From: a virus
Length of the DNA: 64,000 nt
Direction: 5' to 3' (one strand)
IMG/VR virus record: IMGVR_UViG_3300019762_000001
Span: 16,701 to 80,700 of that record
Notes under the pieces: model-generated
What the model was told of the DNA's origin: nothing
Database searches by the model: none
Seen by the model: only the letters and a program-made list of their open reading frames with translations
Shown here: positions 4,302 through 35,250 of the stretch, piece by piece
How the letters are laid out: each line of letters starts with the position of its first letter
Position numbering within the stretch: the first letter of the stretch is position 1
Made by a program: the position numbers and the translations under genes

Positions 4302-4857
4302 CTCCCATGCTCTTTATAGCTTTATTAAACCAGATACCTATTGATTTTTCCCGGGCATCCGGAAATTCCTCTAATACCATTTTAATCACATCAGCTTTTG
4401 GAGTACCTTTAGTGGCAAGTTCATAAGTTAATGCTTTCTTGGTACCTTTAAATACTCCTTGCTCGCTACGTTCACGTTTTTTCTTTACGGTTTTAAACCC
4501 TTTTATTCGTGCAACTCTAGGAGCTCTGTCTGAGTCTTCTCCAGCATATGATAACCTTAGTGATGGATGTGCTAAACTAGGCTCCATAGTTTTACCAAGT
4601 TTCTCATTACGTTTCTGGATAAGTTCCATTACCGCCTTATCATGTTCGATTAGGTTTTGTGGTACTCTATCATCCAGGAAATGCTCCAGGAACCAGCTAG
4701 ATAGTTTGGGTACATCCCATTTTACTACCCGCCTTGGGGATAATCCCCTTAGAGCACATTCCTTTTGAAGAGCCCTAATATTCATATTCTCAAGTTCCAC
4801 AGCAGCTCTACCCTGCATGGTACCAGCTTTTACCTTTTTAACCTTCTTTCTTGCCAT
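4291..4857 (-). CDS. Putative DNA-binding protein (SAP-like N-terminus, helical C-terminus)
   Basis: MNIRALQKECALRGL resembles SAP/HeH motifs; the protein is basic. Confidence 0.45.
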   Translation of the reverse strand: MARKKVKKVKAGTMQGRAAVELENMNIRALQKECALRGLSPRRVVKWDVPKLSSWFLEHFLDDRVPQNLIEHDKAVMELIQKRNEKLGKTMEPSLAHPSLRLSYAGEDSDRAPRVARIKGFKTVKKKRERSEQGVFKGTKKALTYELATKGTPKADVIKMVLEEFPDAREKSIGIWFNKAIKSMGDGK

Positions 4858-5290
4858 GGTTATCCTCTATTTGTATAGTGATAATATCCTGTATAAACTT
4901 CTCAACATGTTCACAACCTGTGATGTTTTTTATCTTGGTAAGGTGTACTATAACATCCTGTGAGTTTAGGTATACCTCCCCAGTATCTACCGCACTTATG
5001 ATTGATATTCCCGTACTTGGTGAGATGGGTGGTACTTCGAGATTATGTCTTACTACCAACCCAAGGTCTTCTAATTTTGTAACCAATTCAGATACCTCTT
5101 TTAGAGGTGCATCCACATATACTTGTACCCGTATCTTTTTACATGCCCCATGTAAGACAGAAGCTGAAATAACTTTACCTGTTATAGGTGAGTCATTTAG
5201 TAGGTTAAGTACTTCTTTCGATTTGCCTAATTGAAAGAATCTGGGAGTTTTTTTAAACTCGAAAATGTTAAAATCTTTAGTATTACTCAT
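4838..5290 (-). CDS. Hypothetical protein
   Basis: 150 aa ORF directly downstream of a promoter. Confidence 0.7.
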   Translation of the reverse strand: MSNTKDFNIFEFKKTPRFFQLGKSKEVLNLLNDSPITGKVISASVLHGACKKIRVQVYVDAPLKEVSELVTKLEDLGLVVRHNLEVPPISPSTGISIISAVDTGEVYLNSQDVIVHLTKIKNITGCEHVEKFIQDIITIQIEDNHGKKEG

Positions 5291-5319
5291 ATCTTTAGTA
5301 TATGTATTAATTAATAGTG

Positions 5320-5351
5320 CAAATATATATATTATAATTACTCAGTGCAAA
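5320..5351 (-). promoter_or_regulatory. Bacteroidota sigma-A-type promoter (TTTG-20 nt-TATATTTG)
   Basis: Minus strand TTTGCACTGAGTAATTATAATATATATATTTG. Confidence 0.8.
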
Positions 5352-5368
5352 TCTTGGAGGGTACTTTT

Positions 5369-6355
5369 TTAGACATGGAATTTTTCATCCTCGGTTCTTT
5401 CGGCTCCCTCTAATTCCATCTTTGAATCTCTAGCTTTAGACCTATTAGCTTTATCATTAAAATCTACTGTTCGTAGAATATGAGCTCTAGTTTTCTTGAT
5501 ATGCTCTATGGATTCATAGTTTATAGCTTCCTTTAGCATTAGTCTAAAGTTTTGCCAGAACTTCTGACCAAGCCTTGGAGTTTTTGTTTTCTCTACGAAA
5601 TAGTAATTAGCTATGAGCTGGCCAAAGTCTGTTGCTTTACCCTGTTTTATATACATTGGGATCCCAAGCTTACCAAAATAATCCCGTACTGTTTGGGTAT
5701 TCTTTACTGTTATTATTTTATACATGGTTGGCTGGTACTCAGGGTTTGGAAGAGCAACATAGACTCTATCGTGAGTTCCAGTATATTTGTATTTTTCAGT
5801 GATTAAGAAAAGTGTGGTTGAGGGTAGGGTGGTTATATTCTTTAGGTATTTCTGGAACCTAGCCTTAGCCCGTCTCTTGAATGCAGATGGTTCTTGTAAG
5901 TCATCCGGTAATATCCTAAAGTTATTCCATCTGTCGAACTCCATGATGAGTTGGAATAGATCCTCGCAAGCCTCATTGTCGGTATTAATAATGTTGAACA
6001 TTTCTTGGTATACCTTTCGATCCCTAGCAGTTCGTATCATATACCTTTTATCATCCAGCCTTCTTACAGCAGCTTTCATTGGAACTCTATCCTCCATGAG
6101 GTAGGCTAGGTATAATTTGAAGTTCTCTGATACTGGGATTCCCTCCGGGATAAGGGTATGATACTTATTATAATGCAATGTAAAAATCCGGATAAAGGTT
6201 TTAGCTCTATCCAGAATCTCCAGGTATTTATAATGTGATTTTTTCATTATCTCCCCAGCTTGCCAGGTGGATTTCCCAAATTGCACGGATAGGTTAAGGG
6301 CTGTTTGCTCTTCCTCTGTTAGTATTTTCCATGCCTCAATTCCATTCATCTTCAT
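5369..6355 (-). CDS. Protein with an N-terminal sigma70 region-4-like HTH
   Basis: AWKILTEEEQTALNLSVQFGKSTWQAGEIMKKSHYKYLEILDRAK follows the sigma4 pattern L..EE...L.L....G.S..E.G..M..S.......RA. Confidence 0.55.
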   Translation of the reverse strand: MKMNGIEAWKILTEEEQTALNLSVQFGKSTWQAGEIMKKSHYKYLEILDRAKTFIRIFTLHYNKYHTLIPEGIPVSENFKLYLAYLMEDRVPMKAAVRRLDDKRYMIRTARDRKVYQEMFNIINTDNEACEDLFQLIMEFDRWNNFRILPDDLQEPSAFKRRAKARFQKYLKNITTLPSTTLFLITEKYKYTGTHDRVYVALPNPEYQPTMYKIITVKNTQTVRDYFGKLGIPMYIKQGKATDFGQLIANYYFVEKTKTPRLGQKFWQNFRLMLKEAINYESIEHIKKTRAHILRTVDFNDKANRSKARDSKMELEGAERTEDEKFHV

Positions 6356-7061
6356 TAGATTCTTCGTAAGTTAGGTTAGCATATAATTTATCTAATACTC
6401 TAGGACCTAGCTCGCATAGTTCATCTAAGCTATCCTCTCGCATTGATTTCTCCTCGTAATCCTCATAGACAGTGTAAAATATATTTTCGAAGTCCACTGT
6501 TACTTGGGTTGGGTTATCCCCCAGCATTAAGTCTAGTATTACTTGTTTATTTTTGTGGTCTATCTTTATAATAGTACCAACTAGACCTTCATAGGGATAA
6601 CCTTTTAAAGAGATTTCGTCACCTTTTTCTATCTGTCCAATTTCTAAGTCATTGAATATAGACTTACTCCTACAGGCTCTCTTTACTGCAACTATTTCCC
6701 TAGATGAAACTATGGAGATGTTATGGATCCCGATAGATGAGTCAGCTTCTTCATCATATAACATTCTTGCAGGATCTTTTACCCAGCTGTGTATCCCAGG
6801 TATTTGGTCCTTTAACTTTCTCAAGAAGTCAGGGCTAAAGATAAATTGCTCGGGTATTTTTAAGAACCCATAGTTTAGTAGGAATGGTATGTCCTCATAC
6901 TCCTTTTTGTTTTTGAAGCATTTCTTAAGGACTCTGACCATTGGTATGTATACCGTTATGTCAGAATATCCATTCTCTATTAAGTCCTGTTCGAAGGTAT
7001 CAAGAGCTTTACGGTTTACATGTACCGCTACCCAGATCCGGCTAAGTTTAGAGTCTTTCAT
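6336..7061 (-). CDS. NusG/RfaH/UpxY-family transcription elongation factor
   Basis: NGN domain (WVAVHV...VYIPMVRVLKK...PFLLNYGFL) plus KOW domain (IEKGDEISLKGYPYEGLVGTIIKID...VTVDFENI). Confidence 0.85.
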   Translation of the reverse strand: MKDSKLSRIWVAVHVNRKALDTFEQDLIENGYSDITVYIPMVRVLKKCFKNKKEYEDIPFLLNYGFLKIPEQFIFSPDFLRKLKDQIPGIHSWVKDPARMLYDEEADSSIGIHNISIVSSREIVAVKRACRSKSIFNDLEIGQIEKGDEISLKGYPYEGLVGTIIKIDHKNKQVILDLMLGDNPTQVTVDFENIFYTVYEDYEEKSMREDSLDELCELGPRVLDKLYANLTYEESNEDEWN

Positions 7062-7606
7062 CGGTAAATACGTTTTTTATAAGCCTTAGCTATTTTGTGG
7101 AATTTTTTGTAGTCCATTGAGAAGAAGTCTCTGGAATTTAGTAGGACTACAGTTTCATGGTTTGGGTCTTGGAATGATAGTATGCCATGTTTACATTTGA
7201 AGATAGGCCCTATAGCTTGGAAGAATTCTCCAGATATAACCACAAAGTGCATGTCCTTTGGCATTCTGTCATATCTCATGAATACTATTGGGATTAGTCT
7301 ATGGTCTAATCCATCAGAACTGGATTGGGCCCAGAATTCTTTTATCTTAGTTTTCTTACTACCCACTGACCCATCTATTAACCCCTCAAATGAGATGTCT
7401 TTATGATGCTTAGCCTCTATAGATAGTGTGAAATATCTCGAGTGCTTCTCATCGGTACAGATTATATCCCCAGAGGAATTTTTAGATTGCCAATGTAGAC
7501 CCCCGGATTGGGGGACTCTAGAGAACTCTAGCCCTGTCCAACTCATAAATAGTTTGGATAGGGCCAGTTCATTTTTGTTTCCTTTGTTTTTTGAGTTTAC
7601 CGCCAT
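7058..7606 (-). CDS. Holliday junction resolvase (Hjc-like PD-(D/E)xK)
   Basis: NSKNKGNKNE, RVPQSGG, GDII and IEAK motifs. Confidence 0.8.
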   Translation of the reverse strand: MAVNSKNKGNKNELALSKLFMSWTGLEFSRVPQSGGLHWQSKNSSGDIICTDEKHSRYFTLSIEAKHHKDISFEGLIDGSVGSKKTKIKEFWAQSSSDGLDHRLIPIVFMRYDRMPKDMHFVVISGEFFQAIGPIFKCKHGILSFQDPNHETVVLLNSRDFFSMDYKKFHKIAKAYKKRIYR

Positions 7607-7661
7607 AGTATATTGTGTATAGTTTATATACTAATAGCCGTCTAGTGTAACAGTATTGTAG

Positions 7662-9536
7662 TTACGGTCTATCATATTGAGTAACACCTTGATGTAACCT
7701 TAGAGCCAACATACGTGCATTGGTAGGCGCAAAGGATTTTTGGTGTGTGATTAATGTAACAGATTTAGTCTCAGCTTTTTTCTGGATTATCTCAGATACT
7801 ACCTCTATATTATGGGCATCCAGAGATTCAAAGGCTTCATCTATGAATAAGATATTGGTATTCAGTACCTTGTTAACCACATCATGTAAAGCAAAGGCTG
7901 CAGCTATATTAACCAGTTGGCCCTGGCCCCCGGATAGATCCTTTTGGGGTATCTCCATACCATTCTTTAGTATGTAGGCATCTATTGATTTCCTAGCTGA
8001 GTCCATGTTTACTTCGAACTTAACCTGGAACCCAAGTATATCTGCATACTCTAGTAGTAAGTCATTGAAGTCACCCATCATTTGATCAAAGATGAAAGCC
8101 TTGATACCATGGTTTGATAGTGGATCATTTATGCACCATTCTAAATCCTCAACCAATTTTCTACTCTTCCTGGCTAATTTCTTTATTGGCTTAACTTCTT
8201 CTTTTAATTTTTCTATTTGCTTCTCTACCTTACTAATATCCCCAGTAAACTTCTCTTTCTTAATAACCTTAATCTCAGATTTATATTCTTTTATTTGAGA
8301 TTCGTACTCACTCCTTAACCCCTCATTAGAGTTAAAGCTATCCCGTTGTTTTTCTAGTACTTTCTTTTCTTTAGTAAGTTGTTTTTCTTTGCTTATAAGT
8401 TTATCTTTACTAGCAATTTGTTGAGTTAGCTCATTAATCTCCGATTTACTTTTGGTTATAGTATCCCCGGTAATCTTTAAAGAAGTTTCAAGGGCTTTGT
8501 GATTTGCTTTTAATACCCCCTCCCTTTGTTTTCTTTCTGACTTAGTATAGGGTTTACCGCATTCCATACATGAAGTAGGGATATGTTGTAGTTTCTCCCA
8601 AGATTCATCCCTCTCTTTCTTTATACTCTCGTAAGTCCGTTCCTCGAATTTTAGACTACCATTTAACCTGGCCAACTGGGTTTCTAGTTTCCTCCTTTTG
8701 TCTTTAGCTTTAGTTATGCTCTTTAGGCTTTTGTCTATAACTATGATCTTGGAGTTGGGTATGCTCCATTTTACTTTATTCCCAACGCATGACTTTAGTT
8801 TTTCTTCAGCCTCCTCAATTTTAGCTTTAAGTTTTTTAATCTGTTTCTTCTTGTTTGTGTCGAAGGTGAGACTCTGCTCTTTAAGCGATTCAAGTAGTTC
8901 TTCCTTTCCTTCTTGTTTTGAGCTATAGCCCAGTAGTTCAGACTCAAGCTTGGATAACTTTTCTCTTTCATTCTTTAGTTTAGTTTTACCTATTTCCTTT
9001 GCTTTATTTATATAGGCCACGTCAAAGGCTTCTTCAAAGATCTTAACCCGGGATGAATTATCTTCTTCTACTAAACCCTTAACCTTCTGACCCATTGCCA
9101 GTGCACTTTTGAATAACCCATAGCTGAAGCCAAGGATCTCTTGTAGCATTTCTTTTGCTTTACCTTTTGACTTAGCTTCCCCTATTTCCTGTCCGTTTTT
9201 CAGGAGTATTAGCCGGTTCTTACCCTTTGAACCCTGCACTTTGCCGGTAAAGTCTTTACATCTGATGGCCTCATAGGTATCATCGAACTTTTCAAAAACT
9301 ACTCTTACTCTAGTTCCCCGCCATAGGTTAGTTCTTAGCCTTTCCCAAGTCTCAATGGTAGCCCCCTCTTTGAGAGGGTAACCCGTACATACCCAGGATA
9401 GTGCGGATAGTATAGTGGTTTTTCCTGTACCATTTGGAGCCTTGATGGCTGTAAGGCCAGGGTGGTCCAATCTAAACACGAAAGGGATTTGGAATGAACC
9501 AAACCCCTCTATCTCGAGCTCTTTAAAATATAACAT
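7662..9536 (-). CDS. SbcC/Rad50-like ATPase (T4 gp46-like)
   Basis: Walker A APNGTGKT, CMEC zinc hook, LSGGQ signature, LFIDE Walker B, coiled coils. Confidence 0.95.
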   Translation of the reverse strand: MLYFKELEIEGFGSFQIPFVFRLDHPGLTAIKAPNGTGKTTILSALSWVCTGYPLKEGATIETWERLRTNLWRGTRVRVVFEKFDDTYEAIRCKDFTGKVQGSKGKNRLILLKNGQEIGEAKSKGKAKEMLQEILGFSYGLFKSALAMGQKVKGLVEEDNSSRVKIFEEAFDVAYINKAKEIGKTKLKNEREKLSKLESELLGYSSKQEGKEELLESLKEQSLTFDTNKKKQIKKLKAKIEEAEEKLKSCVGNKVKWSIPNSKIIVIDKSLKSITKAKDKRRKLETQLARLNGSLKFEERTYESIKKERDESWEKLQHIPTSCMECGKPYTKSERKQREGVLKANHKALETSLKITGDTITKSKSEINELTQQIASKDKLISKEKQLTKEKKVLEKQRDSFNSNEGLRSEYESQIKEYKSEIKVIKKEKFTGDISKVEKQIEKLKEEVKPIKKLARKSRKLVEDLEWCINDPLSNHGIKAFIFDQMMGDFNDLLLEYADILGFQVKFEVNMDSARKSIDAYILKNGMEIPQKDLSGGQGQLVNIAAAFALHDVVNKVLNTNILFIDEAFESLDAHNIEVVSEIIQKKAETKSVTLITHQKSFAPTNARMLALRLHQGVTQYDRP

Positions 9537-25136: not shown

Positions 25137-25778
25137 ATGGAATTACATCGATTAAAGCCCCTTAAGGATGGCTTCCCAGAAGAGCTCTTCAATAAGATCT
25201 ATCTGGAAGTTCAACCCCTTAAGCACAAACTAATCTCTGGCATAGACTGCAGGAGATTGGGAGTTTCAAAGGATATAGTTGAATCCTGGTTTGATGATAA
25301 AATACTTTATGTGTTTAATAAGTATTTTGATGAGAAGCCGGACACAATAAAAGGCTATGTGCTTAGCTCCCTATCAACATTTAAGTATAGGGTTTTGAGA
25401 AAAGCCTACCAGGCGGATATTCATGAGAATTTGGTAGAGCTAGAGGGTGAGAAAGAACTCATTAATATTATACCAGATGAAAGTGAGATGAATGAAGCGG
25501 AGTTATTCTTAGAGTTAGCCCATTCCTTTATGCAGAAGGCATTAACCGAGGATGCTTTATTGGTTTATGAACTCCAATTAAATCCCCCACCGTTTATTTT
25601 AAAACGGCTAAAAAACCCAAACTCAAGGATACCAACTTGTTTATTGTCGGATTTCTTGGGTTTGGGCGATAGTAGAGATTCTTTAGATTACGTTAATAGC
25701 TTGAGGGAGGAAATTACCATGGCTATAAAACAAGCTAGGGAGTACTTTAAAGAATCTGGTGTTTGCTTAGTTGAGTAA
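25137..25778 (+). CDS. Putative phage RNA polymerase sigma factor
   Basis: Region-2-like LFNKIY...DIVESWFDDKILYVFNKY...KGYVLSSLSTFKYRVLRK and a region-4-like C-terminus; the only plus-strand gene between the replication and virion modules. Confidence 0.55.
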   Translation: MELHRLKPLKDGFPEELFNKIYLEVQPLKHKLISGIDCRRLGVSKDIVESWFDDKILYVFNKYFDEKPDTIKGYVLSSLSTFKYRVLRKAYQADIHENLVELEGEKELINIIPDESEMNEAELFLELAHSFMQKALTEDALLVYELQLNPPPFILKRLKNPNSRIPTCLLSDFLGLGDSRDSLDYVNSLREEITMAIKQAREYFKESGVCLVE

Positions 25779-25781
25779 CCC

Positions 25782-27527
25782 CTAATATCTTTGGACTACT
25801 CTTACTACGGTTATGGTAGATGGGTCTTCTTTAGCTGATATTTGGATTAAAGCCGTCCTATCTACTCTAAGTGGATTAGATGTTATAGAGAATGTTATTC
25901 GGGGTTGGCCCGGTAAACCCCAAGCCCAGCTTACCCAGCCTGGTGCATTGAATGTACCATCTGGGTTTGGTGGGTAGGTAATAACTGGGGAATTAACTCC
26001 TCGGTCTGACCCAATAACATCGATATCGATGATGTTACCGTAGTGAGCCCCTCTATCAAATACAAAATCCCCTGGGGTAGCTGTAATAAATAGGGATGAT
26101 GATTCTTGTTTTACTGCTATATCCAGGGTAATAGATGGATCATCAGTAGACCTAATCGTTATTACTCCCCCTATGCCAGCTTTACCCGAGTTTGGAGTAG
26201 TTGGTATTACCTCAAGTGTATCACCTGTATTATAGTCTGTATCTAAGCTTTTATCTAGAGTTATAAATACTGGCTTAGCTATCACTCGCCATTTTTGGGT
26301 ATCACCACCGGTTACGCTTAAGGTGATTGTTTTAGGGAGCCCTGGTACAGCCTCAAATTCTAGCAGGTTTGAAGAAGTAGCTAAAGTAACAGGGTCTGGT
26401 AATGGGTTTGGAGTCCCAATTGGTGAAAAATTGTCAATAACCCATTGTTGTATATTTGCTATGAGGTCCGAGTGTTGCTTATTAATTTGAGCCCTGGTAT
26501 ATACATCATCAGAGTTAGCCTTCCTATCAACTGAGCTCCTTAAAAAATCCAGTTGCTTATGTATATAAGTATGTGCCGGTACCCATTTCTCAAGGTTATA
26601 AGCCAAGGAGATAGCCCCAGCAGGTCCTGTTAATTCTAACTTACCATAGTTAACCCCTGTACCCCCCAGTTTATCTAAGTTACCACCTATGGATAGATAT
26701 ACAAGTTTAGATGTATTGTTTACTAAGAATATAACAGTGTTAGCTCTAAGGTTAAAGCTATCAGCTACTATATTTTCTATAACACTATTTGTGGCTATAC
26801 TGGGGGGCAATTTAAAGATATTACCATCATCTCCTATAGTAAGGGTTTTAGTAGCTGAATCATAGGTACAAGTGCCCTCAGATTCTGTATTAGTTACTCC
26901 CTGATATAGGTTATAGGTTTTACCGTTAAGGGGTTGAGTTATAGCAGAACTTTGTATATCCTTCTCAAGTTTTGAAAGCCTGCCAGCATCTGAGAATTCC
27001 GGAGTTACTTCTGGGTGATAGAAAATTTGGTCGATAGTGTTTGCTCCTGCTGGTACATCTATTACACCAAGTACTACTTGAGAAAGTGGACTAGTGTACG
27101 CAGGGGCTACTGGTGTATCTGCTGGAGTACCCTTTATTACTAAGTAAGTTGGGGGGTTTACTCCAGGTATGTTGTCTTTATATAGGTGTTCTAATACCAC
27201 TATATCCCTACGACCTTTAGTATCTGTGTTATAGTCTATCACAAGAGAGGCTATACTAACCTCTCCCTCTTCGTGGATGATAGTACCTTGGGGAGTTATT
27301 GATATCCCGGTTCTATCACTTAATAGCCCATCTTTGGTTTTTATTATGACACCAGTGCTATCATGTGAGAGTTTAAAAGATATCTTACCCCCCACTGGAG
27401 TACCAGGTTTTATAGTGTCAAAACCACGATATCTACCTGGGGGCATTATACCAGACCTCTCTAATAGCCTATCCCAGGATAATACCGGATCTTTATACTT
27501 ACTGAATTGCCTTGAATTGGTTGACAT
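25782..27527 (-). CDS. Tail fibre / baseplate protein with C-terminal BACON-like domains
   Basis: N-terminal fibre-anchor pattern (RRDIVVL...LGVIDVPAG); two Ig-like units ending IAVKQE and RTALIQI...VRVVQR. Confidence 0.65.
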   Translation of the reverse strand: MSTNSRQFSKYKDPVLSWDRLLERSGIMPPGRYRGFDTIKPGTPVGGKISFKLSHDSTGVIIKTKDGLLSDRTGISITPQGTIIHEEGEVSIASLVIDYNTDTKGRRDIVVLEHLYKDNIPGVNPPTYLVIKGTPADTPVAPAYTSPLSQVVLGVIDVPAGANTIDQIFYHPEVTPEFSDAGRLSKLEKDIQSSAITQPLNGKTYNLYQGVTNTESEGTCTYDSATKTLTIGDDGNIFKLPPSIATNSVIENIVADSFNLRANTVIFLVNNTSKLVYLSIGGNLDKLGGTGVNYGKLELTGPAGAISLAYNLEKWVPAHTYIHKQLDFLRSSVDRKANSDDVYTRAQINKQHSDLIANIQQWVIDNFSPIGTPNPLPDPVTLATSSNLLEFEAVPGLPKTITLSVTGGDTQKWRVIAKPVFITLDKSLDTDYNTGDTLEVIPTTPNSGKAGIGGVITIRSTDDPSITLDIAVKQESSSLFITATPGDFVFDRGAHYGNIIDIDVIGSDRGVNSPVITYPPNPDGTFNAPGWVSWAWGLPGQPRITFSITSNPLRVDRTALIQISAKEDPSTITVVRVVQRY

Positions 27528-27790
27528 TATTTAGAAGTTTTAAATAGTTTCTTTATAAGTTTCTTTAATAGTTTGTAGAGTTCTCCTACCAAAATACCCA
27601 CTAATGAACCAACAGCTGCTAGTATTATAGTATCGGTTAGCCCAGGTACTGTGATTTCTAGTAGGATTACTTTGTGACTGACCCCATACAGTACACCGCC
27701 TACCCCGCCGGAGCTGGATAGGAAATGTTTCTGTATTGCAGGGTATAGTTTTTCTGATAGTGGTTCTAAGAATCGGATTATTGAGTCCAT
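27527..27790 (-). CDS. Small membrane protein, possible holin
   Basis: Hydrophobic segments and a strongly basic C-terminus. Confidence 0.45.
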   Translation of the reverse strand: MDSIIRFLEPLSEKLYPAIQKHFLSSSGGVGGVLYGVSHKVILLEITVPGLTDTIILAAVGSLVGILVGELYKLLKKLIKKLFKTSK

Positions 27791-27862: not shown

Positions 27863-28624
27863 TTAATCATTAAATACAAATTCTATTTTAGGTACATAGT
27901 AGGAACCCCTTTGTATCACCTCCACATCAAGTGAGTGATACCCGGTAGTAATCCTTGTATATCCCGATCCCTCTATCATACCCACTGGGGCTAAAAACAT
28001 ACTTGTCTTTGTCCTAAGGGTAGAAGCTTGCACGGTAGTAGTGGTTTTTCCGGGTGTGTTAGCTGGCATTGAAACTATGAAAGGTTGTATTGGGGTAACT
28101 TCCATTACTGCCTCTCCATACATCCCAGAAGGTGATGCTGTGGCGTAAAAAAGAGAATACCAGGCAGTACCAGTTTGATCTGTACTTGTAGCTCTTGAGA
28201 AATGTATGGTGATATCTACTGTAGTAGCTGAGGGTGGAATTGTTGGGATATTAAAGGATATTAATCTGTCAAGCTCTGTACTACCGGCATAGCCAAATCC
28301 AACATTTGGCATCTCAGCGGTTAATGGAGCCCTAGTAGTTGTCTTACCACCAAGTTGCTCTCGTCTAAAGTAATAGTTAGTAGGTGGTGGGTATATAGCT
28401 GAAACATAGTTCCTAAATTCAGATAGCCAATGTCCATCCTTAGCATAGGTGGGGTCAAATCCTGTATCACCAGCCTCAGTAAAACAATCTTCTAATGAGA
28501 ATGGAGCAGTAAGGCCTAGCTCTGTTCCCACCACGCTTAGAGTAACTATTGGATTATCTGGTACCTGAGCAAACAGCCCAATACTTAGTATCAGGCTGAT
28601 TAATAGAGTTTGTAGCTTTTTCAT
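27863..28624 (-). CDS. Signal-peptide-bearing tail-fibre-associated protein (adhesin candidate)
   Basis: MKKLQTLLISLILSIGLFA|Q; beta-rich; follows the tail fibre gene. Confidence 0.55.
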   Translation of the reverse strand: MKKLQTLLISLILSIGLFAQVPDNPIVTLSVVGTELGLTAPFSLEDCFTEAGDTGFDPTYAKDGHWLSEFRNYVSAIYPPPTNYYFRREQLGGKTTTRAPLTAEMPNVGFGYAGSTELDRLISFNIPTIPPSATTVDITIHFSRATSTDQTGTAWYSLFYATASPSGMYGEAVMEVTPIQPFIVSMPANTPGKTTTTVQASTLRTKTSMFLAPVGMIEGSGYTRITTGYHSLDVEVIQRGSYYVPKIEFVFND

Positions 28625-28626
28625 AG

Positions 28627-30933
28627 TTAGTTTAGTTTTCCATTGTTAGCTTTCATAAACTGCTGATCCCAGTATCCCTCCCCTCCATAGGGTAGTATCT
28701 CAGAGTTTTGGTTAGACTGGGGTACTTGTAAGATATCTTCTAATCTTTGTAATCTTTCTTCTAAGCTAGTAACCTTTTGTTTAAGTTTAGCATTATTATA
28801 CTGCATACTATCCTTGAGTTGTTCTAGCCGAGCAACTTTAGCACATAGAAGATCTATATAATTAACTGTCTTAGTTTTCATTGAATCTTGTAGAGTTAAC
28901 ACTAATTCAGGGTGAGTAAGAAGTATAGAATCAGCAACCACACCCACACGTCTTCTATCTGGGCTAGAATTCATGTGAAATTGTTTAATCTCAATCTTAT
29001 CGTAGGATTCTAGATTTTCAATATCTTTGATATCATGTTTAAGTCTGATATCTGAAGCTGTTGTAGATACATCTAATGCAGTAACTGTACCACTAGCTAC
29101 TATATTGCCAATTACATCTATACCGCTATCATCTATAGTAACTAATCCTTTTGAACCAGATGTTTCGTTGAGATTCTTGGTTATTCTTAATGCACCATTA
29201 ACATTATCTATTCCTATATTAGAGTTGTTGCCATGAGAAAATATCATACCTGGTGTATCTGATGTGCCATTGTTCATTTGTACATTGCCACTATCCCTGA
29301 AACTCCAGGCTGATCCATTTCCTACTATTACCCCATCACTAAAACTACCGCTACCTGTTACTTCGTGATTACCTGTTGTTTTAGTACCTAGTAGGGTTGT
29401 TTCAAATTTTAGGTCGCCTAAACCATATAACTGTTGATAAGTATTTGGAGTAAAGAGAGCCCCCAATCTACCCGAAATATTATCATATACTTGAAATGAT
29501 TTACCACCCGCTAAATCTTCAAGAGATAGATTAGTGCCACCAAGTGTACCTCGTTGCTTGAAATCCCAAGCTCGTTCAATATCCAGCTTAAGGACACTAA
29601 CACCATCACCTGTTGCACTAAAACTACCACTGCTAGCATTAATATCACCGCCAACTGCTATATCGCCTGTTATATCTATGCCGCTAGAAGATAGTGTTTG
29701 AACATCAGTCCCGCCAATATTTAGGTTTAGCTCAGAATTTGAGTGATTATATTCTAGATAAGCATCTAATCCACTTGATCCAAATGAAACTCTCCCGATA
29801 GAAGAATTCCCACTCTGGATAGCTATCCCGGCATTACCAGAGTTTACAATTGATACCTGTTTTAAAGAAGTCCAAGATGGGGGGTTTATGCCCCCTATAA
29901 TAACATTGCCACTAAACATACCACTACCCCCTGTAAAGTTACGAGAATCATCTATTGCTAGATTTCCCCCTACAGAGTAAGATTGAGCATTCCAGGGAGT
30001 TGTATTGTTGTTTGAGTTTTCTGAATGATAAAATTCCTTCCATGCCCCCCACGATGAACCATTATCGCCACTGTACCTCTTCCAAATACCTCCGCCTCTG
30101 GAATCAGAAGCGTAGAATATCTGATGTATCTCATTAGGATCATACCCTCTATATACATTCATAGTATGGCCATTATTAATAACCACAGGACTATCCCCTG
30201 TTGTTGAAGTACTAATCTGGTAATTACCAAGAGCTGTAACATCATTAATATTACCAGACGCAATACCCCTAAAATATTGAACGTTGGTTAAAGCCCCAAG
30301 GGTATTAAGTTCAGTTGTTGTAGAGTAATTTGGTTTATCGTTTAACCAGATTGGGTCTGTTTCTGAAAGATTAGCTTGTGTAAGAACTTCACTATATCCC
30401 GAAGAAGCACTTCCCACTTCTACCTTATCATTATCCTGACTTATCCTTAGAGCTAAGCTAGTACTTCCCCCATTATTATTAGCTAAGTAGGTAGTTCCGT
30501 CAGACCCAGTTGATAATACCGATTTATAGTTGGTAGGCCCCACAGTACGGGATTGGGCTATCTCTGAGTAGTCAGTGCCCTTTGACACCCCTATTCTATC
30601 ATGGAAGTAAGTTAATCCCCCGAAATGGGTTAATCCAGTAAAACTTTTATTACCTGTTAGAGTTTCTACACCATCCAGGGTTACATAGTTTGATAGGTCC
30701 CCAATAACATTTACCCACTGTGTACCATCTGACATATATAAGATATGGTTAGATGATACATAGAAGCTACCTGGTAATCCCACGGTGGGAGGGGTAGCGG
30801 AAGCTAATGGTACAACCCTAAACTCATAGGCTTTTAGTTTTTCATAGTATTCCCAGCCTTGCTGAGCATATACACTATTGATGGTGGCAATAAGAGCCAC
30901 CATTAAAATCAGTAATCTTTTCATCTGTTTCAT
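28627..30933 (-). CDS. Tail fibre with a knob domain and C-terminal S74 intramolecular chaperone; has an N-terminal signal peptide
   Basis: ETLTGNKSF, knob-like GNY...QIFY...IWKR...WGAW, SDIRLKHDI...VNYIDL plus coiled coil. Confidence 0.8.
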   Translation of the reverse strand: MKQMKRLLILMVALIATINSVYAQQGWEYYEKLKAYEFRVVPLASATPPTVGLPGSFYVSSNHILYMSDGTQWVNVIGDLSNYVTLDGVETLTGNKSFTGLTHFGGLTYFHDRIGVSKGTDYSEIAQSRTVGPTNYKSVLSTGSDGTTYLANNNGGSTSLALRISQDNDKVEVGSASSGYSEVLTQANLSETDPIWLNDKPNYSTTTELNTLGALTNVQYFRGIASGNINDVTALGNYQISTSTTGDSPVVINNGHTMNVYRGYDPNEIHQIFYASDSRGGGIWKRYSGDNGSSWGAWKEFYHSENSNNNTTPWNAQSYSVGGNLAIDDSRNFTGGSGMFSGNVIIGGINPPSWTSLKQVSIVNSGNAGIAIQSGNSSIGRVSFGSSGLDAYLEYNHSNSELNLNIGGTDVQTLSSSGIDITGDIAVGGDINASSGSFSATGDGVSVLKLDIERAWDFKQRGTLGGTNLSLEDLAGGKSFQVYDNISGRLGALFTPNTYQQLYGLGDLKFETTLLGTKTTGNHEVTGSGSFSDGVIVGNGSAWSFRDSGNVQMNNGTSDTPGMIFSHGNNSNIGIDNVNGALRITKNLNETSGSKGLVTIDDSGIDVIGNIVASGTVTALDVSTTASDIRLKHDIKDIENLESYDKIEIKQFHMNSSPDRRRVGVVADSILLTHPELVLTLQDSMKTKTVNYIDLLCAKVARLEQLKDSMQYNNAKLKQKVTSLEERLQRLEDILQVPQSNQNSEILPYGGEGYWDQQFMKANNGKLN

Positions 30934-30937
30934 GTTT

Positions 30938-31687
30938 TTAAAGTTGAGAATTTATTCTGTAATATAAAGTTCCATTTGGGTATCTCGTTGGGGGCATAAA
31001 TATGAATTTACCTATTTCTTTAGTTCCAAAACCCCAACCAGATCTAACCTTAGTCCCATCGGTAGCAGCATACTCTACCACCTCTATGTAATACCTATCA
31101 TTGGTTTGTCCCACTACAGTAACCTCTGTGTCTCCAGATATGGCTTTAGGGGTTATAGCCAATTGATTTTTTATATGGTTTACATCACTATCTACTTCAG
31201 GCTTACTATACACGTTTAGGTTTGTCCTAGCCACAGCCCTATCCGGTAAGTCCCCTAGGTTATTAGCTTTCTTTACATAGTCAGTTAGAGAAAAGTCTAT
31301 ACCCTCTTGCTCTGCTAACTTGTAAAATATATCGTTTGTCTTATCATACCTGTATATAGCCCAACCGGCATTAACAGTCGGATCATCAGAAGCATCCTGG
31401 ACAAATACGTTTTCCCCATTGGTTATATTAGCTTTATCCGCATCTCTCTCAGGGATATCTGGATAACCTTTATCTGCTGCCAAATGTAGATTGATACCAT
31501 TTAGTAGTACCTGCTTAGTAATATTCTTATTTACCCCTGCTTGTACTATGGTTAGTATATCCGGATCCTCAAAGGTATCAGCTGAGGGTAATTCTGATAT
31601 TCTAACCCTATTTAGGGATTGTTGTAGGGTATTAACTCGGTTAGTTAAGTTCTGTACCTGTAGTTCTAATTCTGCGTTACTGGCCAT
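30938..31687 (-). CDS. Tail-fibre-related protein
   Basis: RISELPSA, DASDDPTVNAGWAIY and NNLGDLPDRAVARTNLNV motifs typical of fibre proteins. Confidence 0.6.
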   Translation of the reverse strand: MASNAELELQVQNLTNRVNTLQQSLNRVRISELPSADTFEDPDILTIVQAGVNKNITKQVLLNGINLHLAADKGYPDIPERDADKANITNGENVFVQDASDDPTVNAGWAIYRYDKTNDIFYKLAEQEGIDFSLTDYVKKANNLGDLPDRAVARTNLNVYSKPEVDSDVNHIKNQLAITPKAISGDTEVTVVGQTNDRYYIEVVEYAATDGTKVRSGWGFGTKEIGKFIFMPPTRYPNGTLYYRINSQL

Positions 31688-31690
31688 GGT

Positions 31691-32386
31691 TTAAGGTTTT
31701 TGTGATTCAAGTTCAAAATGGGAGCCAGCTTCATCACTGAGTATTCCTAGCCCATTTTCTAAAGCTATTAATTTAGTCCCAGTGGTTATGGTCTTTAGCC
31801 TCATATCAATTGGCTCCATCCATCGTATAATTGGGTATATCTTAGAGATCAGAGTATCATCAACTGGTAAAGCTCCCTCGTGAGTAAATAAAATAGATAC
31901 ATCATAGGTTCCGAAGTCTGCAATTGGAGAATCGTAGTAATGGCCATCATCATATCTATGGTGGATTTTACCAATGTCTAGTGAGTCATAATAGAACTCT
32001 GTTTCTAACTTCTCATTAATACTTACTATGTACCCGAGATAAGCAAAAATCATTCTTATACCCTCATATGTACCCTTTAACTTTCTTAGACTTACATAGT
32101 AGTTCAATAGCCCACGGTTATATCGGTCTTTAAATACTGAACCAGAAGAGAGGAGTTCTGGGGGATTACCAAATTGCTCAGAGATAACCCATAAGAACCT
32201 TTCTGGTGTACCCAAAGCATCGTGTTTATCAAGGAAATTTTCTCCCTCTGGTATAATGTTCTGGGTTATTTCATCCTGGAATATTTCTATGTACCTCTCG
32301 AATAAGCCCTTACCATTACTATCCCTATAGGTATCTTGTGATTTATGGTAAGGCTCAAAAAAACTGTTGAATAAGTTATTTAGCAT
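31691..32386 (-). CDS. Baseplate wedge protein (P2 gpI-like)
   Basis: PERFL...KLKGTYEGI; follows baseplate J. Confidence 0.75.
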   Translation of the reverse strand: MLNNLFNSFFEPYHKSQDTYRDSNGKGLFERYIEIFQDEITQNIIPEGENFLDKHDALGTPERFLWVISEQFGNPPELLSSGSVFKDRYNRGLLNYYVSLRKLKGTYEGIRMIFAYLGYIVSINEKLETEFYYDSLDIGKIHHRYDDGHYYDSPIADFGTYDVSILFTHEGALPVDDTLISKIYPIIRWMEPIDMRLKTITTGTKLIALENGLGILSDEAGSHFELESQKP

Positions 32387-34062
32387 TATACGTTGGTTAT
32401 AGTTAGATTATTTACTGATAATACCGGTAGAGTATAGTCTGATATTTCCATATCATTGTTATATGGGTAAGTAGTAAACTCCCAAGAATCCCCCACAGTG
32501 TAGCTACCATCTGATAATTCTAATTGTATAGCTCCATCTACCGATAAATAGTTTGAGTAGAAAGAGATGGATGGTTGAGCTTTACCATCTTTATATAATA
32601 GGTATTGGTTACCGGCATATACTACCTTCCAATAAGCTCTTTGTGATGATCCTGGTAGTACTTCTATTAAAGATACATTCAATACATGGGTATTATCTCC
32701 TAAAGGTTTTGGTACTGGTTTAGTACTAAGCTTAGTAATGGTTACATACTCTGTAGAGGGTGAATTTTCTATAATTGCTATTATATCTGAATACCTGATA
32801 GCCTTGTTTATCCTAGACTTAGTAGCAGAATATTCAGCTAATAAAGCTAAAGCTACCTCGTTGGTATTAATCCCCTTATCATGCCTGAATTTAGTAGCTA
32901 AATCAAATGAAAGTAATAGCTCTGTTTGGCCAGCGGATTTTACAGTTATATTCCTACCCAATAATCTACGGCTAAAAATAAAGTTATAGGTACTTTCCAA
33001 TAGCTCGGTAGAAGCTTCTCCACCGTTTATTGGGCTTATAAATATTTCCAAGTATCTTGGGTGATAGTATCTTAGTACTGCATCAGCAACACCTGGAGCC
33101 AGTTTAGCTATATCTTCATGGTCTGATTCTGTTACTGCATACCATAGGGTCCTAAGGCTTAGTACAGAGTTCTTACGAATAGATTCCATAGATTCCACCT
33201 CTGAACCCCCAGTTGGGGCCATTGGATTTTTACATTTTAGATTATCGCTAGCTAACCCCGGTAGGGTTATTTGAGTTACGAAGTCTGTTATAGTTAGAGC
33301 CTTAACGTTATTCCCAGCATCACCAATTGTTGTTTTATAGGTAGCTATAATATCTTTATCTTTTGGGGGTATCTTGCCCTGTACTCCATTCCCGAATATA
33401 ATTGTTGGGACTTTATTTACTGATAGGGTAGTAGTAAAGTGGGCATCCATGAAATTAGAACTTGATAAGGTTTCTTTAAATACATAGATTTGCCCATCTA
33501 TTATTAACTGGATACTACCCTCTGCAACATCCTTTGGCATATCCACTATCTGTGAGGGTAATCCATTGGTCCTACCCACATTTTGATTAATCGCTGCCTC
33601 TACTTGGTAGGCTGATATAGTAGTTTCTGATGTACCATTTTCTATCGTAGCATCCGATACTGTCTGGAATTGTATACCCCCAGCTTCAATTATTGTACCA
33701 GAGGGAATAAGATGGTCAACAGCAGCTATTATAGGGCTTCCATCATTTGCTTCTAAGTAAAGGATTAAATCTACCGTAGCTGGTATACGAGAATTTATGT
33801 GGTAGTCATAAGCTCTAGCATGTTTTAAAACGCTACTAAACCTCCTTGCTGTAGGCAAGAAGGATTCCCTGGATAGGTTATCAAGGTAAGCATTTAGTAG
33901 TTCTGCTATCCCAGAAAACATCTCTATAATAACTATAAGGATATGGTTAGGAGAGAAATCTGTGATTTCAGGTACCTTTATCTTTAGCCGGGTTAGCAAA
34001 CTAGCTTTAACCTTTTCGTAGCTCCTATCAAAGTAAGTTACCCAGTCATTTGAAAATTTCAT
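32386..34062 (-). CDS. Baseplate J / gp6-like wedge protein
   Basis: ESFLPTA, FGNGVQGKIP, GGSEVES and AVTESDHE. Confidence 0.9.
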   Translation of the reverse strand: MKFSNDWVTYFDRSYEKVKASLLTRLKIKVPEITDFSPNHILIVIIEMFSGIAELLNAYLDNLSRESFLPTARRFSSVLKHARAYDYHINSRIPATVDLILYLEANDGSPIIAAVDHLIPSGTIIEAGGIQFQTVSDATIENGTSETTISAYQVEAAINQNVGRTNGLPSQIVDMPKDVAEGSIQLIIDGQIYVFKETLSSSNFMDAHFTTTLSVNKVPTIIFGNGVQGKIPPKDKDIIATYKTTIGDAGNNVKALTITDFVTQITLPGLASDNLKCKNPMAPTGGSEVESMESIRKNSVLSLRTLWYAVTESDHEDIAKLAPGVADAVLRYYHPRYLEIFISPINGGEASTELLESTYNFIFSRRLLGRNITVKSAGQTELLLSFDLATKFRHDKGINTNEVALALLAEYSATKSRINKAIRYSDIIAIIENSPSTEYVTITKLSTKPVPKPLGDNTHVLNVSLIEVLPGSSQRAYWKVVYAGNQYLLYKDGKAQPSISFYSNYLSVDGAIQLELSDGSYTVGDSWEFTTYPYNNDMEISDYTLPVLSVNNLTITNV

Positions 34063-34065
34063 AGT

Positions 34066-34434
34066 TTATAGGTTTATTGTAGTAGTTAATGTATCGATTT
34101 GATTATAGGGTAATATTCTATACTCAAGTGTTGCTGAAATAGAAGTTTGGGTTACTCTAGAGGTTACTATGCTTTTAAACTCTACCCTTGGTTCCCATAG
34201 TTCTATAGCATCTATAACAAAGAACTTAACCAGAGACTGTGTAATGAAGTCGTTTGGTTCCTCTATTATAGTTGGTATTCTTGAGCCATATGTATTTCTC
34301 CTATACCTTTGCCTTATCTCCCAATTGAGCAGCATTAGTAATGAGCTTTTTATAAGCTCTACCCGATCGGATAACTCCAGTTTACCATCGGTTAAATACC
34401 AAGGGTAAGCTATTCCTTTTTCTTTTAAAGCCAT
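34066..34434 (-). CDS. Baseplate gp25/GPW-like protein
   Basis: YGSRI...EP and AIELWEPRV. Confidence 0.9.
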   Translation of the reverse strand: MALKEKGIAYPWYLTDGKLELSDRVELIKSSLLMLLNWEIRQRYRRNTYGSRIPTIIEEPNDFITQSLVKFFVIDAIELWEPRVEFKSIVTSRVTQTSISATLEYRILPYNQIDTLTTTINL

Positions 34435-34470
34435 TGTGTTTAGTTTAATTTTAGTGGTTATGGTCTCTAC

Positions 34471-35250
34471 CTATTGGACTACTTCTTTATTTTCTATATC
34501 CGGGATAGAACTCTCTTTTAGGCTTTGTTCTAAATAGGGTTTAACTAATGGGGTAGTTGGTGATCCGGGTGAAGCTGAAGTATGTGTATGTACCTTATAG
34601 TCCTCAATCAATTTATTATGGGCTTTTTCCAGGGCGTTTAATTTTTTTATAACTTCCTCAGCTTTTGGTATACCATATAATTTACCACCATTAATAGTAA
34701 TCTTATCCTTAAACATTTCTATACTTTTCTCCTCGTATAGTGCTTTAATATACTCGTCATGTAGAATAATGCTGCATTTATCTGAGTGGTTTACTAGAAT
34801 ACGCTCTTTCTCCATTCTAATAACAGACCCATCTGCATGAGTTATCTCTATTATATTATCTAGGTCGCTTAGTAGTACTTTATGCCCAGAGGGAGTTTTA
34901 AAACCATAACTTTTTTCAGTGAACTCATGGGGTTTTTCCTCCTCAAGATATCCAGAGAATTGCCACCTTGGGAATCTTGAATCCCCGAAGTCAAACCTTA
35001 TCTCTACCTTATCCCCTACCTCTGGTAATATATGAGCTCCATAGTTTTTACCAGAGAATTGACCTAGGGTAGGTACCCATCTTGGGTGTTCCGTGCTTTG
35101 GGTAATATTTGGTATGATTACTTTTATCCTATTCCTATTCTCTGGATCATCTACCCTAGTAACTATCCCCTCATAATGGGAATAGTATTTACCTATAGAT
35201 TCTAATCCATGATATAGTAAAGTCCTTAGAAAGCCTATTACTGATTCCAT
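34471..35250 (-). CDS. Baseplate spike (gpV/gp5 OB-fold)
   Basis: DDPENRNRIKV, LPEVGDKV, KTPSGH and a C-terminal HTH metal motif (VHTH). Confidence 0.9.
   Translation of the reverse strand: MESVIGFLRTLLYHGLESIGKYYSHYEGIVTRVDDPENRNRIKVIIPNITQSTEHPRWVPTLGQFSGKNYGAHILPEVGDKVEIRFDFGDSRFPRWQFSGYLEEEKPHEFTEKSYGFKTPSGHKVLLSDLDNIIEITHADGSVIRMEKERILVNHSDKCSIILHDEYIKALYEEKSIEMFKDKITINGGKLYGIPKAEEVIKKLNALEKAHNKLIEDYKVHTHTSASPGSPTTPLVKPYLEQSLKESSIPDIENKEVVQ

Follow-up and report, generated by a model that had tools for sequence, protein, structure and literature searches.

The DNA analyzed here comes from an uncultured phage of a Bacteroidota host with a complete genome of 80.7 kb and 105 ORFs, and the stretch under study (hereafter, the window) covers 64,000 nucleotides of it (IMG/VR record IMGVR_UViG_3300019762_000001, positions 16,701 to 80,700); all window features given below with coordinates are encoded on the minus strand. 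A tail-fibre gene (28627..30933), a 768-aa ORF matched by Pfam family PF13884 and by tail-fibre PHROGs 1980, 5481 and 33119, is followed by a smaller ORF of 253 aa (27863..28624; PHROG 21885) that starts 2 nt past the fibre stop and is referred to here as the partner gene. Upstream lies a set of baseplate genes (31691..35250; PF04717, PF04965, PF04865 and, below its cut-off, PF09684; PHROGs 6, 219 and 43) comprising spike V (34471-35250), W/gp25 (34066-34434), J (32386-34062) and an I-like gene (31691-32386). The fibre follows these V, W, J and I genes plus one gene for a 249-aa protein and, thus, occupies the position that gpH has in a P2-type module, in line with an initial sequence-only reading of this DNA, which had placed both the fibre and its partner inside the tail operon.

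In its predicted layout, the fibre starts with a signal peptide and a conserved N-terminal domain, followed by a mosaic shaft with a "knob" and by an S74 intramolecular chaperone. Its signal peptide (aa 1-23; 30865..30933), which is kept in the phages L005, L006 and L002, combines a basic n-region (K2, K5, R6), a hydrophobic core free of charged residues and V-Y-A at positions -3 to -1, with signal peptidase I (SPI) cleavage predicted after residue 23 (between VYA and QQ) and Gln24 at +1. The mature protein would begin with a conserved domain (aa 24-75, ending in SDGTQW; 30709..30864) delineated by alignments and BLASTP (E 7e-6 to L006 and 8e-5 to L002), which is our candidate for a particle-docking domain. 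Similarity of the whole protein to the L002 and L006 fibres is mosaic, aa 581-711 are 62% identical to a database fibre, P0004, and a region at approximately aa 203-350 is common to other fibre proteins. The Peptidase_S74 match (PF13884, 26.9 bits vs. a cut-off of 22) covers aa 627-669 of 768, and the catalytic motif SDxxxK (as defined in PMC10769870) is present as SDIRLK (aa 627-632), from which autoproteolysis is predicted; the chaperone/autoprotease region extends from this motif to the C-terminus (28630..29055). Of the earlier description of this protein as a knob + S74 fibre, the S74 part is confirmed, and the putative "knob" corresponds to the shared region. A second copy of the fibre was not found in the genome of this phage.

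The partner is composed of a signal peptide (aa 1-19), an N-domain of PHROG 21885 (aa 20-77; match at E 1.7e-8 over aa 21-77) and a beta-sandwich C-domain (approximately aa 105-253). Its leader contains K2 and K3, a hydrophobic core and L-F-A, with cleavage predicted between LFA and QV and Gln20 at +1; the -3 residue (Leu) is less favoured for SPI. PHROG 21885, a family with no assigned function, is the only PHROG match of this protein, no match was obtained in Pfam or NCBIfam, and a gene of the same PHROG is located directly downstream of the fibre in L002, phi38:1, phi12:1, Molly and L096 as well. An assignment of the partner to known tail-fibre chaperones (P2 gpG, Mu Tfa or T4 gp38 types) was rejected, as none of these families matched; its position is that of gpG, so it may have an analogous chaperone role. 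The AF2 model of the partner is poor (pLDDT 50). Sugar binding is only a lead, since both the carbohydrate-binding-module-like structure matches of the C-domain (Z 7.4 or below) and the ESM Atlas matches (at or below 0.81) are at noise level.

Several neighbouring products bear on the interpretation of this pair. The 249-aa protein (30938..31687), encoded between baseplate I and the fibre, has no leader; it is matched by fragments of tail-fibre PHROGs, has a coiled-coil N-terminus and is 54-56% identical in L005 and L006, and its C-terminal 50 aa are similar (E 2e-4) to the product of the 98-aa gene that directly precedes the L002 fibre. We consider it a candidate baseplate-side adaptor for the fibre, and its sequence weakly suggests that the fibre may bind it. 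A fusion of the fibre to this upstream gene was rejected, as the frames differ and an intervening stop codon is present in all three relatives. On the other side of the pair, a small membrane protein of 87 aa whose C-terminal tail is basic (27527..27790; 62-65% identity in L005 and L006) is holin-like by its features only and has no Pfam or PHROG family match; its equivalent position in L002 and phi12:1 is held by a holin and an endolysin of proven families. Next to it, a leaderless 581-aa protein (25782..27527; 47% identical in L005 and L006) with a BACON-like C-terminus (PF13004, 22.4 bits, under the cut-off of 25) is possibly a second fibre or receptor-binding protein. Two further large leaderless proteins (1154 and 445 aa) are encoded outside the window, and PHROG scans of this phage identified neither an endolysin nor other fibres.

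The two leaders were evaluated by a strict rule of our own (basic n-region, uncharged h-region of at least 9 residues, small residue at -1, allowed residue at -3, Gln at +1, cleavage site at 15-32). Exactly two of the 105 ORFs of the whole 80.7-kb genome pass it, and these are the adjacent fibre and partner genes, which upholds both the claimed presence of Sec-type leaders with +1 Gln on the two proteins and the argument that their adjacency speaks against chance. Wrongly chosen start codons or hydrophobic N-termini arising by chance would be an alternative source of such features, and the public gene call of the fibre (P0001, 758 aa) does begin at Met11; nevertheless, the hydrophobic core and the VYA-QQ site persist even from this start, and the intergenic gaps are only 2-4 nt. 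Start codons past the hydrophobic segments (51 and 67 in the fibre; 31, 32 and 105 in the partner) all fall inside domains conserved in homologues, which makes later starts improbable, as they would truncate these domains; moreover, leaderless homologues of the partner start exactly where the mature window partner would. With the feature present in at least eight independent loci and in none of three control loci, we regard an artefact of this kind as exceedingly improbable, and the conclusion holds that, as judged from sequence, both proteins carry genuine predicted leaders of the Bacteroidota Sec/SPI type. Gln is found at +1 in every such leader of the examined phage loci (the window, L005, L006, L002, P0003, P0004, L096-L098 and phi18:3 gp085-087). 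This agrees with the Q-rule, by which Gln at +1 is a host-specific SPI signature of Bacteroidota (PMC5837995), as the sequence-only reading had stated. Its ubiquity points to a cleaved leader, since an uncleaved anchor would not be expected to be selected for Gln.

The leaders are kept in relatives as well as in independent phage lineages. Leaders are present on the same two genes in the two related phages L005 and L006, even though the fibre body has been swapped: between these phages, the flanking genes are 84-99% identical vs. 26% for the whole fibre, within which the leader and the first 71 aa share 72% identity and the remainder 23%. Both S74 and non-S74 forms of the fibre exist within the window clade, and its place between the baseplate and the holin is the same in three related phages. 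Beyond these phages, no fewer than five uncultured phage lineages also carry leaders. Partner homologues with a leader include P0003 and L002:8007-8777, and those without a leader include phi38:1 gp086, phi12:1 gp61 and Molly gp062. At the level of the cassette, both genes carry the leader in the window clade, in L002 and on a 224-kb JGI contig (where P0003 and P0004 are placed together by inference), and neither gene does in three cultured Flavobacteriia phage lineages (Molly, phi38:1/Calle and phi12:1); a mixed case, with the leader on one gene only, was not found among the examined lineages. Thus, as far as these sequences indicate, the leader appears to co-vary between fibre and partner (both or neither; approximately 6 independent lineages, Fisher P ~0.05). 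In addition, S74 is followed in the L002 fibre and in P0004 by an added transmembrane helix and basic tail at the C-terminus (type-I topology); such an anchor makes sense only with a translocated fibre body and, therefore, supports export.

The closest cultured counterparts of the window cassette are leaderless. Cellulophaga phages phi38:1 (gp085/gp086, NC_021796) and phi12:1 (gp60/gp61, NC_021791) and Maribacter phage Molly_1 (gp061/gp062, NC_062751) share with the window the order of a large fibre followed by a small partner, with the fibre stop overlapping the partner start and the cassette located beside lysis genes. The phi38:1 and Molly fibres are S74-ended, like that of the window, and the cultured partners combine the PHROG 21885 N-domain with a variable C-domain (BACON in Molly). 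However, neither protein of these cassettes has a signal peptide, and their partners start with M-x-VPN, whereas in the window the leader is fused exactly before the same domains. A methylation proteomics paper on phi38:1 does not mention gp085 and gp086. The only cultured analogue verified for the window pair is Cellulophaga phage phi18:3 (KC821620.1, Pachyviridae), in which three consecutive proteins of 547-785 aa encoded beside the lysis genes (gp085, gp086 and gp087) have Bacteroidota leaders with +1 Gln and are annotated, on the basis of the GenBank note, as "structural protein, experimental MS/MS proteomics", a method which, applied to purified particles, can also catch co-purifying envelope proteins. 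Unlike the window pair, these proteins belong to a podovirus and contain no S74; no homology to either member of that pair is detectable, and their record documents no processed N-termini.

Leader-bearing fibres of a similar architecture are known from cells. Mosaic adhesive trimer (MAT) fibres of Bdellovibrio bacteriovorus are surface-located; behind a signal peptide and a conserved N-domain they have a trimeric fibre whose tips can be exchanged, and they end in an S74 with SDxxxK, with non-S74 variants also described (PMC10769870). A MAT-like layout is shared by unstudied Bacteroidota "tail fiber domain-containing" proteins, which act outside the cytoplasm; leader-bearing cellular S74 fibres are common in Bacteroidota, and a leader with Gln starts approximately 30 of 80 bacterial S74 loci. 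These cellular fibres differ from the window fibre in that they sit on the cell's own surface, have a different N-domain (of the SFTYQG or PQGFNYQ type vs. a phage type in the window) and lack a baseplate/holin context. We rejected membership of the window fibre in the MAT family, as it lacks the conserved ~130-aa beta-rich N-domain after the signal peptide; by its sequence, it is a protein that would work like a MAT fibre while not being a member. Among phage proteins, the S74 domains (PF13884) of K1F endosialidase and of the T5 L-shaped fibre pb1 resemble that of the window in the Ser-Lys motif and in trimer folding followed by self-cleavage; these fibres have no signal peptide and, to our knowledge, fold in the cytoplasm. 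The receptor-binding protein pIII of filamentous phages is exported through Sec before assembly, and inoviruses assemble at the membrane. We know of no tailed phage that exports its fibres, and a literature search returned no paper on Sec leaders of tailed-phage fibres or on a periplasmic maturation route. Host-type SPI leaders exposing Gln, like those of the window, have been described in Q-rule genes of Porphyromonas gingivalis prophages (Matrishin et al., 2023; PMC10367356); those genes have no assigned function, are possible host-envelope modifiers, and tail fibres are not mentioned among them.

Combining these observations, we consider export of the fibre and partner through Sec to be well supported as a prediction from their sequences, and it appears likely, albeit somewhat less so, that the two constitute the variable receptor-binding module of this phage, given the gpH position, the swapping of the fibre between close relatives and the lack of a second fibre copy. 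A host secretion signal on both proteins implies that they probably mature in the periplasm rather than in the cytoplasm, and a leader on fibres acting outside the cytoplasm is made plausible by the bacterial S74 fibres with leaders and the surface-located MAT fibres. In the proposed mechanism, SecYEG would translocate both proteins late in infection and host signal peptidase I would cleave after VYA (fibre) and LFA (partner). In the periplasm, the C-terminal S74 chaperone would trimerise the fibre and remove itself at Ser627, and the partner, with its small N-domain and beta-sandwich, would join, probably at the tip that is exposed once S74 has been cleaved off. The finished fibre would reach the cytoplasm-built tail only once the holin opens the inner membrane, and would dock via its conserved N-terminal domain, perhaps onto the 249-aa protein. 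No mechanism is known that would bring a periplasmic fibre to a cytoplasmic tail; mixing of fibres and tails after holin action is what we infer. To this proposal as a whole (two Sec preproteins, periplasmic maturation and loading after holin action) we assign a probability of roughly 40%. That the exported pool ends up on virions at all is, likewise, somewhat short of an even chance; it is indirectly supported by synteny, by module swapping and, by analogy, by the phi18:3 annotation. More tentative still is the picture of a two-compartment particle, with head, tail and baseplate built in the cytoplasm and an exported, pyroglutamate-ended, S74-trimerised fibre with its partner loaded between holin opening and outer-membrane rupture. 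The usual reasons for periplasmic folding appear to be absent: oxidative folding was rejected (fibre and partner have one Cys each), as was host O-glycosylation (no enrichment of its sequons in the two proteins). The initial interpretation, by which the exported proteins are either incorporated into the virion (in the periplasm or upon lysis) or act as secreted receptor blockers or adhesins, is thus sustained with respect to genuine, conserved and co-varying leaders on a receptor-binding module, while sequence data cannot choose among these fates.

Other readings accept the leaders and differ in the destination of the proteins. T5 Llp as well as lambda Lom and Bor, exported proteins encoded beside fibre genes, are morons rather than virion parts. 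The window pair could, by analogy, be exported without ever joining the particle, as late envelope factors that mask or occupy receptors, block superinfection or prevent sticking to debris, with the virion using leaderless fibres, for which the 581-, 1154- and 445-aa proteins could serve. Fast divergence would also fit an exclusion factor that tracks the receptor, and the Porphyromonas prophage genes have been read as envelope modifiers (PMC10367356). We consider this unlikely, although it is the least improbable of the alternatives. The phage looks lytic, both genes are part of its late tail operon and hold the place of gpH, the fibre retains an N-terminal domain that can be aligned to the start of leaderless fibres from cultured phages, and the leader-bearing phi18:3 proteins are annotated as virion proteins; moreover, in the tail modules of L097 and L098 no other fibre candidate was found. 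Signals for transport to the cell surface are also missing: in an NCBIfam search at E <= 0.01, which a very divergent CTD could escape, a T9SS sorting domain (TIGR04183, TIGR04131) was found neither in the two window proteins nor in eight homologues, and an exported lipoprotein of the Llp/Cor type was rejected, as there is no lipobox, the leaders are followed by Gln rather than Cys, and the single Cys of the mature partner is at position 47.

A reading that keeps the canonical assembly route would have the leaders real and the virion pool cytoplasmic, with export partial or shut late in infection and the exported share a by-product or serving a side function. The less favoured Leu at -3 of the partner and the function of homologous cassettes without a leader in cultured phages fit this version; nevertheless, complete n-h-c leaders with +1 Gln on both genes in many lineages suggest selection for the cleaved, exported form, and the stop-transfer anchors seen in two homologues would serve no purpose if the protein stayed in the cytoplasm, which makes this version quite doubtful. 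Slightly less probable again is a moron captured from a cellular family of exported fibres and still acting as a host surface or periplasmic fibre during infection rather than as a tail part. The leader-fibre-S74 architecture is indeed common in bacterial chromosomes (including Aquimarina WP_234859281.1), and MAT fibres come in S74 and non-S74 forms, as do those of the window clade. However, in its mature N-domain the window fibre is of the phage type, all records in which the partner family (PHROG 21885) was found are those of phages, and the three related phages have the gene at a fixed place, with the baseplate on one side and the holin on the other.

Assembly of tailed phages is, in the textbook view, wholly cytoplasmic. 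Passage of the receptor-binding module through the periplasm, if true, would add an assembly step and expose virion parts to host envelope chemistry (pyroglutamate formation and, in some lineages, possibly O-glycosylation). Annotation pipelines that call leader-bearing proteins non-structural would miss receptor-binding proteins of many Bacteroidota phages, and producing such fibres recombinantly, or exchanging them in laboratory phage-host pairs, would require correct handling of the leader. The occurrence of the same cassette with leaders in uncultured phages and without them in cultured Cellulophaga and Maribacter phages offers an unusually clean comparison, and, under the proposed export, these cassettes of related Flavobacteriia phages would amount to a natural on/off experiment. 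The cultured phi18:3 provides a system for direct measurement of N-termini on leader-bearing structural proteins.

Scans for close relatives with single proteins returned nothing, and metagenome and genome scans with the partner returned no relatives. A wider viral scan with the partner N-domain recovered only phages already in the comparison set, and a scan with the fibre N-domain yielded one addition, an unrelated actinophage with the SDGTQW motif inside its fibre.

The 768-aa S74 tail fibre (28627-30933, minus strand) and the 253-aa partner encoded by the next gene (27863-28624, minus strand) both open with a Bacteroidota-type Sec/signal peptidase I (SPI) leader, with predicted cleavage after VYA in the fibre and after LFA in the partner exposing Gln at +1; re-reading of both N-termini agreed with the description given in the sequence-only reading. 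Under strict criteria of our own, not a trained predictor, which require a basic n-region, an h-region free of charges and no shorter than 9 residues, a small residue at -1, an allowed one at -3, Gln at +1 and a cleavage site at 15-32, 2 of the 105 ORFs of the whole genome passed, namely these two neighbours, and there were no passes at the loci of the three cultured phages carrying a homologous cassette. True starts located downstream of the hydrophobic segments, which would have undone that description, could be ruled out because the next start codons (fibre 51 and 67; partner 31, 32 and 105) all fall within homologue-conserved domains; the public gene call of the fibre starts at Met11, which leaves both the cleavage site and the hydrophobic core intact. 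The S74 domain of the fibre (PF13884, a C-terminal chaperone) scores over the Pfam cut-off, and its catalytic SDxxxK motif (defined in PMC10769870) reads SDIRLK at aa 627-632. Gln at +1 marks Bacteroidota SPI substrates and is then cyclised by a periplasmic-face glutaminyl cyclase (PMC5837995). Since every leader in the phage loci examined exposes +1 Gln, and an uncleaved anchor would escape such selection, this uniformity points to real export. At the level of sequence, the occurrence of leaders on both genes is confirmed and reaches beyond the window phage, and we consider export of both proteins likely (probability roughly 0.8). No description of Sec leaders on tailed-phage fibres was found in the literature searched, the nearest published case being that of Porphyromonas prophages, in which genes of unknown function have Q-rule leaders (Matrishin et al., 2023; PMC10367356).

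The source IMG/VR record (80.7 kb, direct terminal repeats, completeness rating 100%; the window covers bases 16701-80700) carries nearly all of its genes on the minus strand. Upstream of the fibre lies a P2-type baseplate block composed of spike V (34471-35250), W/gp25 (34066-34434), J (32386-34062) and an I-like gene (31691-32386), followed by a leaderless 249-aa protein (30938-31687). After the fibre and partner come an 87-aa membrane protein (27527-27790), holin-like by its hydrophobic segment and Lys-rich tail and with no family match, and a 581-aa protein (25782-27527) with a weak BACON-like end; no endolysin or spanins were identified in the window phage. The sole plus-strand gene of the region (25137-25778, 213 aa), placed between the tail-end genes and a DnaB-like helicase, has no family match, shows 81-82% identity in the related uncultured phages L005 and L006, and may be a late regulator. 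The host is very probably a member of Flavobacteriia, because the closest cultured relatives of both fibre and partner belong to Cellulophaga and Maribacter phages.

L005 (82.7 kb) and L006, whose baseplate J is 68-70% identical to that of the window phage, keep both the gene order and the leaders: between the 249-aa and holin-like genes, each encodes a fibre (1007 and 806 aa) and then a 203-aa protein, all of them with leaders. Comparing the two, flanking genes are 84-99% and partners 84% identical, whereas fibres are only 26% identical, falling from 72% over the leader and first 71 residues to 23% over the remainder, a pattern as would be expected if a receptor-binding module were exchanged while its attachment domain stayed fixed. 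Both fibres terminate in a different, non-S74 domain, and their partners have the C-domain of the window partner without its PHROG 21885 N-domain. The C-terminal ~100 aa of these S74-less fibres (L005:13147-16170, L006:4565-6985) and of another from the uncultured phage L097 (8001-12455) form a common domain ending ..W.Y.G.T....LNY(N/Q), with a weak match to PHROG 19976 'tail assembly protein' (E 3e-4).

The cassette recurs in other lineages. In L002, an unrelated 54-kb phage, the S74 fibre (1085 aa) and its partner (256 aa) both have leaders, and after them come a holin of PHROG 199 and an endolysin of PHROG 315; the same leader-bearing pair is found in the homologues P0004 (fibre) and P0003 (partner), probably co-located on a 224-kb JGI contig. 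Three further IMG/VR phages (L096, L097, L098) have a leader-bearing fibre, with an N-domain differing from the window type, and then a leader-bearing gene at the tail-module end, which in L096 includes PHROG 21885. The leader is absent from both genes in the cultured phages phi38:1/Calle (gp085/gp086), phi12:1 (gp60/gp61) and Molly (gp061/gp062), where partners start M-x-VPN, precisely at the mature start of the window partner. Thus, across about six independent lineages the two genes either both carry the leader or both lack it, mixed cases being absent, which argues that fibre and partner would have to share one compartment.

In the window partner, the leader is followed by a helical N-domain (PHROG 21885, ~55 residues) and then by a C-domain of beta-sandwich type. 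This N-domain accompanies S74-ended fibres in the window phage, L002, the JGI pair, L096, phi38:1 and Molly, as well as in phi12:1, whose gp60 fibre stops where the S74 cleavage site would fall, and is absent from the partners checked (L005, L098) when the fibre ends in another domain. This co-occurrence suggests that the N-domain may dock on the fibre tip freed by S74 cleavage. PHROG 21885, annotated 'unknown function', is found in the gene directly after S74-type fibres of Flavobacteriia phages of different morphotypes (window 27863-28624; L003:6998-7450; L004:5995-6435; L095:6398-6853; L096:9788-11086), and the C-domains following it vary (BACON in Molly; CBM-like in the window, with scores no better than noise). 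In the 249-aa protein, aa 197-245 resemble a 98-aa protein (L002:4403-4699; BLASTP E 2e-4) located just upstream of the leader-bearing fibre of L002, and this C-terminal part may be conserved as a docking partner of the N-domain of the fibre.

That the pair constitutes a receptor-binding module appears rather probable, and its use as a virion fibre is favored by the gpH position (the fibre slot of a P2-type module), the distal swapping between close relatives, the alignment of the N-domain with N-termini of leaderless cultured-phage fibres and the lack of a second fibre copy in the genome, as well as by the tail modules of L097 and L098, where no alternative fibre candidate is seen. Additional support comes from the cultured Cellulophaga phage phi18:3, in which a run of three neighbouring proteins with a leader plus Gln (gp085-087), encoded immediately ahead of membrane proteins and a GH108-type hydrolase, is labelled in GenBank 'structural protein, annotation based on experimental MS/MS proteomics analysis', other MS/MS-supported structural proteins among those translated being without a leader; however, gp085-087 are not homologous to the window pair, and their leaders are predicted, with N-termini not in the record.

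The main alternative, export for an accessory role, would agree with the presence of further large leaderless proteins in the window phage, and no known mechanism would bring together fibres from the periplasm and tails from the cytoplasm; we regard this alternative as somewhat less probable than loading onto virions. Loading of the exported pool onto virions is proposed tentatively, at somewhat below even odds: periplasmic fibres and cytoplasmic tails would mix once the holin has opened the inner membrane, while the outer membrane is still intact. The large leaderless proteins include three late-looking ones of 379, 1154 and 445 aa at a window-phage locus outside the window (L102; G000:C1:2986-9580), the second matching PHROG 10818 (function unknown, E 3e-236), which could be additional fibres or virion proteins.

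As to reasons for export, oxidative folding is unsupported (one Cys per mature protein), as is host O-glycosylation, the Bacteroidota sequon D-[ST]-[AILVMT] being at chance level, by shuffles, in the window fibre and partner; a search of both for a T9SS sorting domain found none. Sequons are strongly enriched in the leader-bearing fibres at L097:8001-12455 (19 vs. 6.8 expected), L098:7944-9407 (9 vs. 1.8) and L098:9414-10154 (4 vs. 0.8), with 0 vs. 4.9 expected in the L005 fibre.

That S74 fibres are functional beyond the cytoplasm is indicated by a leader plus Gln opening ~30 of 80 bacterial S74 loci, mostly of Bacteroidota, and by the surface-located Bdellovibrio MAT fibres, in which a signal peptide precedes a conserved N-domain, the tip is swappable and the end is either S74 or non-S74 (PMC10769870). 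In the L002 fibre (4753-8010, last 30 aa) and P0004 (last 25 aa), a hydrophobic helix and basic tail follow S74, giving with the leader a type-I membrane topology, another sign of real export; the inner membrane would then hold on to the chaperone after its release. No such anchor is present in the window fibre. Some cellular S74 proteins (loci L016, L024, L025, L043, L055, L058, L079 and L080; Micavibrio, Alphaproteobacteria and others), several of them ending in a membrane helix, open with a prepilin-like ..GFTLVE.. instead of an SPI leader, which would be an alternative export route for S74 fibres in predators and other bacteria.
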